NCBI RefSeq assembly: GCF_036507355.1
Contig: NZ_AP027877.1
Reading direction: 5' to 3' (one strand)
Length of the DNA stretch: 64,000 nt
Origin: Escherichia coli
GTDB lineage: Bacteria; Pseudomonadota; Gammaproteobacteria; Enterobacterales; Enterobacteriaceae
Positions 13,612 through 20,907 of this stretch are shown here, piece by piece. Both the position numbers and the translations under genes were made by a program. Numbering within the stretch: the first letter of the stretch is position 1; every line of letters starts with the position of its first letter. The notes beneath the pieces are model-generated. The model saw only the letters and a program-made list of their open reading frames with translations. It had not been told where the DNA came from and did no database searches.

Positions 13612-14115
13612 GTGCCGCATATGGCTGGAACGGCGGGGCGTTCCGGGCGTCGCCCCAAGCCAACGGCGCGCAAGGCGCTGGCCGGAAACCCCGGCAAGCG
13701 AGCCCTGAATAAAGATGAACCTGTTTTTACGCCCATCAAAGGTGTTGAGCCACCGGAGTGGTTCGCTGAAGAAGATCTCCCTCTCGCCACGATCATGTGG
13801 CAACTGACAACCAAAGAACTCTGCGGTCAGGGCCTGCTGTGCGTGACTGACCTGGCGGTACTTGAGCGGTGGTGTGTGGCCTATGAGTTCTGGCGACGTG
13901 CCGTGAAAAATATTGCCAGACAGGGCAACACCATCACCGGTGCAATGGGCGGTATGGTCAAAAATCCTGAGCTGACCGCCAAAAAAGAACAGGAGTCCGA
14001 GATGAGCAGTACGGGGGCAATGCTCGGACTCGACCCCAGCAGCCGCCAGCGTCTGATTGGCCTGGCGGGGCAGAAGAAAGCCACTAACCCGTTTCTGAAA
14101 ATTATCGAATCATGA
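13612..14115 (+). CDS. Terminase small subunit (P27 family)
   Basis: 167-aa ORF preceding and overlapping terL; terminase small-subunit-like sequence. Confidence 0.7.
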
Positions 14116-15845
14116 GCCGGAAATCTTACCCCAACGTAAATGCTGCCAATCAGTATGCCCGGGATGTCGTTCGCGGAAAGATTGTGGCCTGCCAGTTTGT
14201 GATTCAGGCCTGCCAGCGCCATCTTGATGACCTGATGGCGGAAAAAAGTAAGTCGTTTCGTTACCGCTTCGACAAGGACCTGGCTGAACGGGCCGCCAAA
14301 TTTATTCAGCTGTTGCCGCATACCAAGGGTGAGTGGGCATTCAAACGGATGCCCATCACGCTGGAGCCGTGGCAGCTCTTTGTGATCTGCTGTGCGTTTG
14401 GCTGGGTCAATAAAGGTACCCGGCTGCGCCGCTTCCGGGAGGTGTATACCGAAATCCCCCGTAAGAACGGCAAATCGGCAATCTCTGCCGGTGTTGCCCT
14501 GTATTGTTTTGCCTGTGATAACGAGTTTGGCGCGGAAGTGTATTCCGGTGCCACGACAGAGAAACAGGCGTGGGAAGTCTTTCGCCCGGCGCGACTGATG
14601 TGTAAACGCACACCCATGCTGACGGAAGCGTTCGGGATTGAGGTTAACGCCTCAAACATGAACCGTCCGGAGGATGGCGCGCGGTTTGAACCGCTGATCG
14701 GTAACCCCGGTGATGGTTCATCACCCCACTGTGCTGTGGTGGATGAATATCACGAGCATGCCACAGATGCACTTTACACCACGATGCTTACCGGGATGGG
14801 CGCGCGACGTCAGCCACTGATGTGGGCCATTACTACTGCCGGGTACAACATTGAGGGGCCGTGCTACGACAAGCGGCGGGAAGTCATCGAGATGCTCAAC
14901 GGCTCGGTGCCCAACGATGAACTGTTCGGGATCATCTATACCGTTGATGAAGGTGACGACTGGACCGACCCGCAGGTGCTGGAAAAAGCCAATCCAAATA
15001 TTGGCGTGTCGGTTTATCGCGAATTTTTGTTAAGTCAGCAGCAGCGTGCGAAAAATAACGCCCGTCTGGCAAACGTCTTTAAAACAAAACACCTCAATAT
15101 CTGGGTGTCGGCGCGTTCGGCGTATTTCAACCTGGTGAGCTGGCAGAGCTGCGAGGATAAATCACTGACCCTTGAGCAGTTCGAGGGGCAGCCGTGCATT
15201 CTGGCCTTTGACCTGGCGCGCAAGCTGGATATGAACAGCATGGCGCGACTTTATACCCGCGAGATTGACGGTAAAACGCATTACTACAGTGTGGCCCCGC
15301 GTTTCTGGGTACCGTATGACACGGTGTACAGCGTCGAGAAAAATGAAGATCGCCGGACAGCCGAACGCTTTCAGAAATGGGTGGAAATGGGCGTTCTGAC
15401 CGTTACCGATGGTGCGGAGGTGGATTATCGCTACATCCTCGAGGAGGCCAAAGCGGCGAACAAAATCAGCCCGGTCAGTGAGTCACCCATCGACCCCTTC
15501 GGGGCGACCGGGTTGTCACATGACCTTGCTGATGAAGACCTGAACCCCATCACTATCATTCAGAACTACACCAACATGTCCGACCCGATGAAAGAGCTGG
15601 AAGCGGCAATTGAATCGGGGCGCTTTCATCATGATGGCAATCCCATCATGACCTGGTGTATCGGCAACGTGGTCGGCAAAACCATTCCGGGTAACGATGA
15701 TGTGGTGAAGCCCGTCAAAGAGCAGGCGGAAAACAAAATCGATGGTGCAGTTGCGCTGATTATGGCGGTTGGCAGAGCCATGCTGTACGAGAAAGAAGAC
15801 ACGCTGTCTGACCACATTGAGTCCTATGGGATCCGCTCGCTTTAA
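14112..15845 (+). CDS. Terminase large subunit
   Basis: 577 aa; ATPase and nuclease regions typical of TerL. Confidence 0.9.
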
Positions 15846-15856
15846 CTGAGGTAATT

Positions 15857-16039
15857 ATGATCATGCTGATTCTCGCGCCTCTGGTGGGCGTGCTGGGGGC
15901 GCTTTTGCTGGCGTATGGTGCCTGGCTGATTTATCCCCCGGCGGGGTTTGTTGTTGCCGGGGCGTTGTGCCTGTTCTGGTCGTGGCTGGTGGCGCGATAT
16001 CTCGACCGTACACAGTCGTCTGTCGGCGGAGGTAAATAG
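15857..16039 (+). CDS. Small hydrophobic phage protein (60 aa)
   Basis: ORF between terL and portal, mostly hydrophobic. Confidence 0.3.
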
Positions 16040-19120: not shown

Positions 19121-19566
19121 TGCGGGAGCTGGATCCGCGCACCACCACTGAACTGATAAACCGCTGGGAGCGTCTGTGCGGCCTGCCGGATGAATGTATT
19201 CCGGCGGGAACGCAGACCCTTCGCCAGCGTCAGCAACGGCTGGATGCGAAGGTTAATCTGGCGGGCGGCATCAATGAGGATTTTTACCTTGCACAGCTTG
19301 CTGCCCTGGGCAGACCAGATGCCAACATCACGCGATACGACAAAAGCACGTTCACCTGCTCATCGGTCTGTACTGACGCGGTGAATGCGCCGGAATGGCG
19401 GTATTACTGGCAGGTCAACATGCCAGCTGCCACCAACACCACCTGGATGACATGTGGCGATCCCTGTGATTCCGCACTGCGTATCTGGGGCGACACCGTT
19501 GTCGAGTGTGTGCTTAACAAACTCTGCCCGTCGCATACCTACGTAATTTTTAAATATCCGGAGTAA
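19120..19566 (+). CDS. Tail/baseplate protein, DUF2313 (P2 gpI / YmfQ-like)
   Basis: 148 aa immediately upstream of the tail-fibre gene. Confidence 0.45.
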
Positions 19567-19569
19567 TTC

Positions 19570-20502
19570 ATGCATCGTATAGACACGAAAACCGCGCAGA
19601 AGGATAAGTTCGGCGCGGGTAAGAACGGTTTTACCCGTGGTAACCCCCAGACCGGCACGCCTGCCACCGATCTGGATGATGACTACTTTGACATGTTGCA
19701 GGAGGAGCTTTGCAGCGTGGTGGAGGCATCCGGTGCCAGCCTGGAGAAGGGGCGGCATGACCAGCTGCTTACAGCGCTTCGTGCGCTGCTGTTAAGCCGC
19801 AAGAATCCGTTTGGTGATATCAAATCGGATGGCTCGGTGAAAACGGCTCTCGAAAACCTTGGTTTGGGAGATGGCTCGGGGCGTTACAGCAAAACTGTCG
19901 TTTTTTCATCGTCGGGTTCATATACGTGGCCAGCTGACGTAAAACGAATTGACGTTATTCTGACTGCGGGGGGCGGCGGTGGCGGTGGATGTAACGCGGA
20001 GAACGCAAATCAGACATTTTCAGGGGCTGGCGGAGGAGCCGGAGGTACTGTTTTTGCCACTATTTATGCGACAGACAACGATGCCGGGCCAGGGACCTAT
20101 ACAGTGACAATTGGCAGCGGTGGTAGTGGTGCCAATGGGCCAGGGTCTGGAAATAATGGCGGTAATAGTTCGTTCATGACATTAACTGCGCTCGGCGGCC
20201 AGGGTGGGCAATGGGGCGGCGCTACAAATACCGCTGGCGGGCGCGGTGGCTCAGGCTCTGGCGGTTATAAAACTGAATAAGGCGGAGACGGTTCAGACGG
20301 ACAGGCGGGCCAGGCGCTATTAGTAGGCAATGGGGCATCGAGCTATTGGGGTGGCGGCGGCCGCGCTGGGCAACTGAGCGGTAATCCTGGAGTTTGCTCT
20401 GGCTCCGGCGGCGGGGGTGCATACGATAATAGCTATTCACACACGTCAGGACGTGGCGGGCACGGAGCTAATGGCGTGCTGGTAATTCGGGAGTTCATGT
20501 AA
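19570..20502 (+). pseudogene. Tail-fibre protein with glycine-rich repeats, interrupted by an in-frame TAA at 20278-20280
   Basis: Frame stays open before and after the TAA and ends ...GANGVLVIREFM* one nt before the Tfa start. Confidence 0.65.
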
Positions 20503-20907
20503 ATGAATGATATCTATGCAGTTGTTGATAATAACGTTGTTATTAATGTCATTATCTGGGACGGAATTTCTGAATGGAAACCAGAGGCTGGTAATTTAGT
20601 TCCGTTAAACGGCGATGCTGGCATCGGTTGGTCATATTCAGACGGAGTATTTACCGCGCCACCTCCCCCAGAACGCTCTCACAACGCGTTAGTTGCGGAG
20701 GCTGAGCTGCAGAAATCAGCACTACTGACCGTAGCAAATAACACAATAGCACCGCTGCAGGATGCCGTTGATTTGGAAATGGCGACAGACGATGAACAGG
20801 CGTTAATGCTGGCGTGGAAAAAATACAGGGTACTGCTGAACCGTGTTGATACCTCAGCGGCACCCGAAATAGAGTGGCCTACGCAACCGGGGGAGCGGGC
20901 CAGTTGA
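20503..20907 (+). CDS. Tail-fibre assembly protein (Tfa)
   Basis: 134 aa, [21 protein letters not shown]..., directly downstream of tail fibre. Confidence 0.75.

Follow-up and report, generated by a model that had tools for sequence, protein, structure and literature searches.

Lambdoid myoviruses of the SfI/SfII/SfV/e14 type have an HK97-like head and a Mu-like contractile tail, and use cos packaging with an HNH nuclease. One of these, e14 of Escherichia (E.) coli K-12, is, like the locus described here, a remnant, and it harbors portal and baseplate pseudogenes. It belongs to the same SfV-like morphogenesis family as this locus (PMC3636060), and SfI is described as a myovirus that packages via cos and has SfV, e14 and lambda as relatives (PMC3636060). 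The close known systems are the serotype-converting lambdoid myoviruses of Shigella and E. coli (SfI, SfII, SfIV and SfV) and Escherichia phage vB_EcoM-720R4. These phages are complete and particle-forming and are found at thrW together with gtr genes, whereas the element described below resides at argW with the integrase IntS. This latter site is also used by KplE1 (also named CPS-53) of K-12, which has IntS and the 16-nt att core CTGCAGGGGACACCAT, and which is likewise defective and lacks a repressor (PMC2951348). KplE1 retains torI as well as its two att cores and is still excisable (PMC2951348), while the element has lost torI and the second core; the gene content of KplE1 also differs from that kept here (Q, lysis and packaging genes).

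The locus is found in a 64-kb window, i.e., the whole stretch of E. coli DNA that was analyzed. It is a 20.3-kb prophage remnant (about 3524-23794) at the tRNA-Arg(CCU) gene argW, with an IntS integrase. We conclude, with a probability of roughly 0.92, that it is what remains of a temperate lambdoid myovirus (SfI/SfII/SfV/e14 type), which integrated at argW by IntS recombination and was disabled by five lesions. These would be independent events: a left-end deletion, insertion of an IS3-family element, deletions of 4.2 and 7.4 kb, and a nonsense mutation in the fibre gene. A block of phage genes at an att site, lacking genes for excision, replication and virion assembly, defines a cryptic (defective) prophage, and the element is an ordinary E. 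coli representative of this already known kind.

An argW prophage of E. coli Yu5 (NZ_CP200247, 42.1 kb, complete as judged by its annotation) has its site, IntS and att core in common with the element; in addition to torI and two att cores, it has kept the early region and every head and tail gene. Positions 6039-18138 of the window align to Yu5 without gaps over 12.1 kb at 98.7% identity. Beyond this alignment, collinearity resumes in two more blocks (18135-19114 and 19102-19874) after missing segments of 4,225 and 7,434 bp, respectively, and identity over the sheath C-terminus, tube and chaperone is 99.9%. The fibre C-terminus, Tfa and acyltransferase allele of Yu5 differ; these are matched at 99.1-99.8% by strain GIMC1405. 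Nucleotide identity to SfII, SfIV and SfI is 97-98% from HNH/cos through TerS, TerL, YmfR, portal and protease to the first part of the capsid gene. In SfII, the head and Mu-like tail genes are arranged in the same way and, as in the element, an opposite-strand membrane acyltransferase gene follows the fibre-assembly gene; a lambdoid nin/Q/lysis region is likewise found in the Sf group. Relative to the Sf phages, the element is without 11.7 kb of morphogenesis genes and the entire early, immunity and excision region. Comparison of gene order with the Yu5 prophage and isolated phage SfII, a check that the initial annotation had suggested, thus revealed that about 24 kb of 42 kb are gone, i.e., 20.3 kb are retained as compared to about 42.1 kb in Yu5. 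None of the missing Yu5 segments (24.2 kb) was found by blastn anywhere in the 64-kb window, and inversion or translocation within the window is therefore ruled out.

At the left end, positions 1-3528 match in alignment the emrK-emrY-dsdA 3' end of strains 3PT and GIMC1405, and the last 69 codons of dsdA remain as a chromosomal stub (3320..3528, − strand). Positions 3524-3844 match prophage DNA downstream of ren in other strains, i.e., the prophage sequence begins after ren, and the junction (about 3526-3528) joins the chromosome to the nin region. The first lesion would be a deletion from dsdA to the nin region, which took the second att core, torI (encoding the excisionase), recombination genes, repressor/cro and the replication genes O and P. 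Both the early region and the second att core, already noted as missing in the initial annotation, are indeed absent across the whole 64-kb window. Neither the CI/Cro-type repressors nor the replication proteins O/P of an inducible lambdoid phage were found in the window, and the Yu5 early/att segment including torI gave no blastn match there (the Yu5 immunity and replication genes are located at 35.6-39.2 kb of locus L004).

The right end is preserved. Here, the intact 385-aa IntS-type tyrosine integrase (22461..23618, − strand; PF00589, PF22022 and PF13356), which is 100% identical to the annotated IntS of GIMC1405, adjoins the 3' end of argW (23780-23854, − strand, identified by ARAGORN; 23779..23854 including the att core). 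The published 16-nt core (PMC2951348) was searched with up to 3 mismatches in the 64-kb window, where CTGCAGGGGACACCAT occurs as a single copy at 23779-23794, i.e., no duplicated 15-16-nt core bounds the element. Scanning the window with a 28-mer of the argW 3' end (up to 3 mismatches) and for direct repeats likewise gave the tRNA copy alone. Core matches with 3 mismatches occur within TerL and at 38410, a position past argW that is not part of the element, and are regarded as chance. In Yu5 the second core copy is located after torI; a 16-nt match just upstream of torI in that prophage was dropped as an att core because the published core is downstream of torI. Excision of the KplE1 type requires IntS, TorI, attL and attR (PMC2951348).

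The nin region is interrupted by a 1,229-bp IS3-family insertion sequence with terminal inverted repeats (4407..5635, − strand), which is 99.8-99.9% identical to elements annotated as "IS3 family transposase" in many genomes. The insertion, which would be the second lesion, splits an ORF of about 212 aa with no assigned function (4146-4406 and 5636-6036, from the reconstructed rejoined ORF). The genes that follow, ybcN, ninE, DUF1364, rusA, ylcG and Q (6222..8089, + strand), are all intact, aligning to Yu5 without gaps or internal stops, and the antiterminator Q (7712-8089, + strand) matches phrog_79. Three cargo ("moron") genes at 8245..11004, all intact as compared to Yu5, sit between Q and the lysis genes: a lipocalin (8245-8769, − strand; PF08212), YbgA (8962-9921, + strand; PF04463 and PF08349) and an AraC-type regulator (10273-11004, + strand; PF12833), with a GC content of 31.5% at 10001-11000. 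Searches of the cargo proteins and of the split ORF against PADLOC gave no match to a defence system.

Next to the cargo genes, the lysis cassette (11193..12345) comprises a holin (11193-11408), lysozyme (11408-11905), Rz (11902-12345) and an embedded Rz1 (12095-12292), all intact on the + strand, with 0-3 amino-acid differences from Yu5, no stops, and full-length matches to phrog_13 and phrog_3198. It is followed by an intact packaging and early head module (13145..17908, + strand) identified from Pfam and PHROG matches, i.e., HNH nuclease, cos region, TerS of the P27 family, TerL, YmfR, portal and S78 protease. The cos region is at about 13496-13620; the linear genome ends of SfII, SfIV and SfI map to about 13508-13572. 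TerS (13621-14115), TerL (14112-15845), the portal (16039-17280) and the S78 prohead protease (17258-17908), all on the + strand, are full length, with 99-100% protein identity to Yu5, no internal stops and full-length Pfam/PHROG matches. The initial view that the lysis and packaging modules are intact was thus borne out. The 83 nucleotide differences from Yu5 in the lysis, HNH and packaging-head genes result in only 10 amino-acid changes, i.e., they are mostly synonymous. From ybcN through the protease, 20/20 genes are intact, as are those for Tfa, the acyltransferase and IntS.

The next ORF (17923..18582, + strand) encodes a 219-aa in-frame chimera of capsid residues 1-72 and tail sheath residues 352-498. 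Its N-terminal part is identical at 70/72 positions to residues 1-72 of the Yu5 major capsid protein (the N-terminal coiled-coil part), and the remaining 147 residues are identical at 146/147 positions to Yu5 sheath 352-498, corresponding to PF17482 and to positions 352-493/493 of phrog_165. The initial annotation described this ORF as a capsid N-terminus; this is correct for residues 1-72, and the ORF is short compared to the 401-aa capsid protein of relatives, but the other 147 aa are the C-terminus of the sheath. Of the HK97-fold major capsid protein (~401 aa) codons 1-72 alone are left, and a Pfam/PHROG profile search found no capsid domain in the element. The junction, defined by the ends of the blastn blocks and a three-way junction alignment, is at a 4-nt microhomology, GGCA (18135..18138), and 4,225 bp are missing relative to Yu5. 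The third lesion would be a 4.2-kb microhomology deletion running from capsid codon 73 to sheath codon 351. The ORF annotated as a 219-aa "hypothetical protein" is thus really a capsid::sheath fusion. It is found in a single strain, and an in-frame outcome of such a fusion is expected one time in three by chance.

The short ORFs that follow in the initial annotation were identified as a complete tube, a chaperone stub and part of YmfQ. The 980 bp separating the two internal deletions contain the complete 118-aa tail tube gene (18582..18938, + strand; PF10618 1-115/117, phrog_185 2-119/119), the product of which is identical to that of Yu5 at 118/118 residues. The earlier statement that tube, tape measure and sheath are absent therefore does not apply to the tube (18582-18938), but does apply to the tape measure and a complete sheath. 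The tail assembly chaperone gene (18938..19120, + strand; PF10109 2-45/79) retains 59/89 codons in the Yu5 alignment, followed by one foreign codon and a stop. Here, an imperfect 10-nt repeat, CGTGCGG(C/A)TG (19105..19114), marks the junction of the second internal deletion, which relative to Yu5 removes 7,434 bp from chaperone codon 59 to YmfQ, including the tape measure and baseplate genes. This fourth lesion would again be a microhomology deletion (7.4 kb, tail chaperone to ymfQ). Beyond it, a remnant of the YmfQ/Mu gp48-type baseplate wedge protein (19120..19566, + strand) comprises residues 47-194/194, with an internal ATG start; it matches PF10076 from profile position 40/150 and phrog_203 from 56/224, and is identical to Yu5 YmfQ 47-194 at 146/148 positions.

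The tail fibre gene (19570..20502, + strand) has 310 codons in GIMC1405 and is cut to 236 aa by a nonsense mutation, Q237* (C>T at 20278, i.e., CAG to TAG at 20278-20280), and the Gly_rich_2 domain is matched to position 115/226 only. A base-by-base comparison of this region with locus L003 revealed 4 differences in 2,099 nt, of which one is the stop; this mutation would be the fifth lesion. The 236-aa product annotated as a "carbohydrate kinase" is really this truncated tail fibre. The following gene encodes an intact 134-aa fibre assembly protein, Tfa (20503..20907, + strand; PF02413), 100% identical to that of GIMC1405. A complete Mu-like contractile tail (sheath, tube, chaperone, tape measure, DNA-circulation protein, baseplate V/gp46/J/gp48, fibre and Tfa) is thus not encoded: the tube and Tfa are the sole complete parts, just pieces of the sheath, chaperone and YmfQ are left, the fibre has its nonsense mutation, and the gene for the tape measure is gone together with four or five for the baseplate. 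The initial annotation proposed a single internal deletion joining head and tail regions; a deletion did fuse head to tail, but there are two deletions (4,225 and 7,434 bp) plus a nonsense mutation.

To judge from the sequence, the capsid, neck, sheath, tape measure and baseplate cannot be encoded by the element, and TorI and the second att are lost. We infer that excision, replication and particle formation by the element are impossible, and that it is therefore a locked-in cryptic prophage. The earlier proposal that it is not inducible as a phage agrees with this defective state, the deletion-joined head and tail genes, and the loss of the early region and second att, while the details of the mechanism were revised. 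Should the source genome carry a second prophage of this family at another site, it could provide missing functions in trans.

The junctions of the two internal deletions were spanned in 0/5,426 complete E. coli genomes, and the decay of the morphogenesis region is therefore recent and strain-specific. In a collection of 15 billion proteins, the chimera, the chaperone stub and the truncated fibre were each found in one contig. The argW prophages of VG888-46E9, GIMC1405 and 3PT, of the same phage family, have also suffered large internal or terminal deletions, but decayed independently, with different breakpoints and mechanisms: in VG888-46E9 an IS1 separates capsid codon 40 from a tail gene, GIMC1405 carries a tail-only remnant adjoining csc genes, and in 3PT dsdC is fused to the replication gene P. 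None of these has the junctions found in this element.

All genes outside the lesions are intact, and the element carries morons, among them an O-acetyltransferase-like conversion gene. In addition, cryptic prophages are reported to be of aid to E. coli in adverse conditions (PMC3105296). These observations would fit a domesticated remnant, in which selection keeps the cargo genes along with those for packaging and lysis, and perhaps the chimera (e.g., for phage exclusion, controlled lysis or as a recombination reservoir). We consider this very unlikely. The lesions are private to one strain, and the intactness is therefore explained by too little time for decay; also, the different, independent deletions in the argW prophages of other strains look random, without convergence on one kept set. 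The survivors (Q, cargo, lysis, HNH, terminase, portal, protease, tube, Tfa, acyltransferase and IntS) probably owe their intactness to how recently the damage occurred, rather than to any demonstrated selection. A further suggestion, that the chimera might be expressed from the late operon during infection or induction of a related SfV/e14-type phage and poison head or sheath assembly as a dominant-negative decoy, seems most improbable; if true, a protein created by chance through a deletion would interfere with superinfection.

It is exceedingly improbable that the deletions are assembly or sequencing artefacts, i.e., collapses from similar prophages elsewhere in the genome. Several related SfV/e14-like prophages are common in E. 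coli (the median over genomes with a match is 3 matching places), but the junctions are at 2-10-nt microhomologies between non-homologous genes, not at long repeats that would mislead an assembler, and the record is a closed 4.64-Mb chromosome with the same ORFs annotated. There is next to no chance that the element is a compact but functional phage or particle producer, in which the short ORFs at 17923-19566 would be unusually small, complete genes for capsid and tail: these ORFs are contiguous, tightly packed and uninterrupted, with the 219-aa ORF in frame and the tube complete, but each is 97-100% identical to part of a longer Yu5/SfII gene, the capsid fold, tape measure, baseplate, neck and sheath N-terminal domains are missing, the fibre has a premature stop, and a profile search of 17923-19120 for complete compact-phage genes, by which the initial annotation could have been overturned, returned the sheath C-terminal domain and the truncated chaperone. 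An R-type tailocin was rejected on the basis of the truncated sheath, the deleted tape measure and baseplate, and the presence of head-side terminase, portal and protease, and a satellite was likewise considered and rejected.

In the defective prophage the loss of the early promoters probably leaves the late operon, which depends on Q, silent unless it is activated in trans by another lambdoid phage. The genes predicted as most likely still expressed are those for the acyltransferase and intS, which form separate units on the opposite strand. The intact 373-aa acyltransferase (21196..22317, − strand; PF01757) matches phrog_3333 "O-acetyltransferase" over its full length (E=2.4e-86) and is probably an O-acetyltransferase conversion gene. 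It is found in low-GC DNA (33.8%), with a terminator-like hairpin just downstream (21171-21192), and a promoter scan of this gene gave no convincing promoter. Similarity to the SfII acyltransferase is not detectable beyond the family level (E=0.16); orthology with OacD of SfII was rejected on this ground, and the family-level and PHROG "O-acetyltransferase" assignments alone remain.

The proper annotation for the element is a non-excisable cryptic prophage, and its significance beyond annotation is slight. It offers a clean, datable example of prophage erosion, i.e., three microhomology deletions, an IS and a point mutation that are private to one strain, and related phages may still recombine with, or trans-activate, its intact Q, lysis, terminase and cos parts.

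The element lies in the E. coli chromosome and adjoins the tRNA-Arg(CCU) gene argW (23780-23854, minus strand) through an intact IntS-type integrase gene (22461-23618), and from there the prophage runs toward lower coordinates. The flank on the opposite side is chromosomal (1-3528); it carries emrK and emrY (511-3212) and ends within dsdA, while prophage DNA starts at 3524, i.e., at the region immediately after ren. The remnant spans ~20.3 kb. The same argW site of E. coli strain Yu5 (locus L004) holds an apparently complete 42.1-kb prophage, which is bounded by copies of the core CTGCAGGGGACACCA(T) at 4156 and 46259 of that locus and carries torI just inside its far end. 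The core is the same as that of prophage KplE1, for which excision requires IntS, TorI, attL and attR (PMC2951348). When the 64-kb window was searched for a second core, only a single copy was found, and none of the Yu5 early segment was located anywhere in it; the initial annotation, which had described the early region as missing and attR as undetected, was borne out on these points. Nor does the window contain any of the 24.2 kb that the element lacks relative to Yu5 (4,225 + 7,434 + 12,513 bp). A single deletion event, the third in this element, removed both the dsd genes and the far end of the prophage: on the chromosomal side it took dsdX, dsdC and all but the end of dsdA, and from the prophage it took the second att core and torI together with O/P, the immunity region and the genes for recombination. 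Because dsdA is cut down to its final 69 codons (within 3213-3528) and neither dsdX nor dsdC is present, the strain would be expected to lack a DsdA route to use or detoxify D-serine. In the chromosomal part beyond argW, low-GC patches (33-42%) are found at 26001-27000, 34001-35000 and 37001-38000.

A blastn comparison of the window with Yu5 yielded four collinear blocks, at 6039-18138 (12,100 nt, 98.7% identity, no gaps), 18135-19114 (980 nt, 99.9% identity), 19102-19874 and 22330-26000. Within the first block each Yu5 gene is an uninterrupted ORF with a protein identity of 94-100% (ybcN, ninE, DUF1364, rusA, ylcG, Q, lipocalin, YbgA, an AraC-type regulator, holin, lysozyme, Rz, DUF6979, a small ORF, HNH, TerS, TerL, YmfR, portal and protease), and TerS, TerL, portal, protease, Rz and Rz1 give full-length Pfam and PHROG matches. 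The packaging and lysis modules are therefore intact, as originally proposed. The isolated phages SfII, SfIV, SfI and vB_EcoM-720R4 share 97-98% identity with the head module. SfI is a lambdoid phage with a contractile tail and cos packaging, related to SfV and e14 (PMC3636060). In SfII, the gene order is TerS-TerL-YmfR-portal-protease-capsid (401 aa), six small head/neck/tail genes including the head-tail connector and adaptor, sheath (498 aa)-tube (118 aa)-chaperone (89 aa)-tape measure-DNA circulation protein, three tail/baseplate genes, and baseplate J-YmfQ-like-fibre-Tfa, followed on the opposite strand by an acyltransferase.

Two deletions interrupt this order in the window, where the ORFs concerned, on a 4.64-Mb contig, are deposited as BED21559-BED21563. 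The first, whose junction is a 4-nt microhomology (GGCA, 18135-18138), cost the element 4,225 bp by comparison with Yu5 and 4,226 bp by comparison with strain 0-4, and capsid codon 72 is now followed in frame by sheath codon 352. The resulting 219-aa ORF (17923-18582) matches Yu5 capsid residues 1-72 at 70 of 72 positions and sheath residues 352-498 at 146 of 147. A profile search assigning complete capsid and tail genes here would have refuted the initial annotation; Pfam and PHROG showed no capsid domain in this ORF, and the C-terminal domain of the sheath (PF17482; phrog_165 positions 352-493 of 493) was the sole match. This in-frame chimera, the only mildly unusual feature of the element, is most simply explained as an accident; its deposited name, "hypothetical protein", is misleading.

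The second deletion (7,434 bp) occurred at an imperfect 10-nt repeat, CGTGCGG(C/A)TG (19105-19114). It left the tail assembly chaperone with 59 of its 89 codons (18938-19120) and the YmfQ/Mu-gp48 baseplate protein with residues 47-194, which start at an internal ATG (19120-19566); the genes for the tape measure, the DNA-circulation protein, baseplate assembly, V, gp46 and J were lost. Between the two junctions, the tail tube gene is complete (18582-18938; PF10618 positions 1-115 of 117) and encodes a protein identical to that of Yu5. The initial interpretation holds in substance and several of its details do not: a deletion within the head and tail region is present, but there are two rather than one; the tube gene, reported missing, is there; and the capsid-type coiled coil of the 219-aa ORF was rightly recognised, while the two thirds that are sheath were missed.

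Strain GIMC1405 gives the best match to the sequence from 19102 on (99.1% over 6,899 nt, gap-free), and Tfa, the acyltransferase and IntS are intact, with 99.7-100% protein identity to that strain. Compared with GIMC1405, the 310-codon fibre gene (19570-20502) has a C>T substitution at 20278 by which Gln237 becomes a stop; the truncated fibre (19570-20280) is deposited under the misleading name "carbohydrate kinase" (BED21563.1). Annotation transfer from GIMC1405 also places a short piece of a second tail-fibre-assembly gene, in inverted orientation, at ~20879-21007 (minus strand), overlapping the 3' end of Tfa. Phages of the e14 type have a pin-controlled invertible segment, and the fragment is probably a relic of a similar invertible or alternative fibre cassette, a reading supported by a weak match (70%) to strain 0-4 on the reverse strand.

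In the remaining nin region, an IS3-family element of 1,229 bp (4407-5635; terminal repeats TGAATCGCCACGG), for which no clear target-site duplication was seen, interrupts an ORF of about 212-213 aa (4146-6036). This ORF has N-terminal membrane helices and a weak match to phrog_27260 only, with no PADLOC or Pfam match. Between antiterminator Q and holin, the position of the stx genes in Stx phages, lies a moron cluster (8245-11004) with a GC content of only 31.5%, which encodes a Blc-like lipocalin (minus strand), YbgA (2-thiouracil desulfurase + DUF1722) and an AraC-type regulator and is common to many E. coli prophages.

The element lacks capsid, neck, sheath, tape measure and baseplate, as well as replication genes, immunity genes, TorI and a second att. 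Judging from the KplE1 mechanism (PMC2951348), excision, replication and particle assembly would be impossible. With capsid and tail incomplete, it is therefore not a functional member of the SfI/SfII/SfV/e14 family, and with no second core and no TorI it therefore does not constitute a complete KplE1-type recombination module; it did not qualify as a tailocin either. The late operon (cargo, lysis, packaging and fragments) would depend on Q, whose natural early promoters are deleted, so that it probably stays silent unless antitermination is provided by a lambdoid phage that resides in or infects the same cell. The most plausible expressed cargo is the acyltransferase (PF01757; full-length match to phrog_3333, "O-acetyltransferase"; GC 33.8%), which has its own terminator-like hairpin and a position equivalent to that of the O-antigen modification genes of Shigella phages. 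Orthology to the SfII acyltransferase was rejected upon comparison.

The sheath-tube-chaperone block is present in 1,630 of 5,426 complete E. coli genomes; in the best-covered of these genomes the match ends exactly at both morphogenesis junctions, and with a query spanning both junctions none of the 5,426 reaches 80% coverage. A ~15 billion-protein collection has the chimera on one contig only, and the same is true of the chaperone stub and of the 236-aa fibre. Across the intact lysis and packaging genes, 83 nucleotides differ from Yu5 and 10 amino acids change; the differences are overwhelmingly synonymous, and the divergence therefore built up while the genes were functional. Independent and different lesions of the same argW prophage are found in three other strains: an IS1-mediated head-to-fibre deletion in VG888-46E9 (locus L002, 12798-14050), where IS1 lies between codon 40 of the capsid gene and a tail gene; a remnant in GIMC1405 (L003, 15038-24753) that retains tail genes only and borders on the csc sucrose genes; and a fusion of dsdC to gene P in 3PT (L006, 9221-9686). 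Nothing in these results points to selection for one specific set of surviving genes. As a cryptic prophage, the element is of a kind already known: the phage family it derives from is well known, and its integration site has been studied in detail. Prophage decay seems to have a hotspot at argW, and the rarity of the junctions, the synonymous divergence and the lesions in other strains together fit the ordinary, ongoing erosion of a common prophage.
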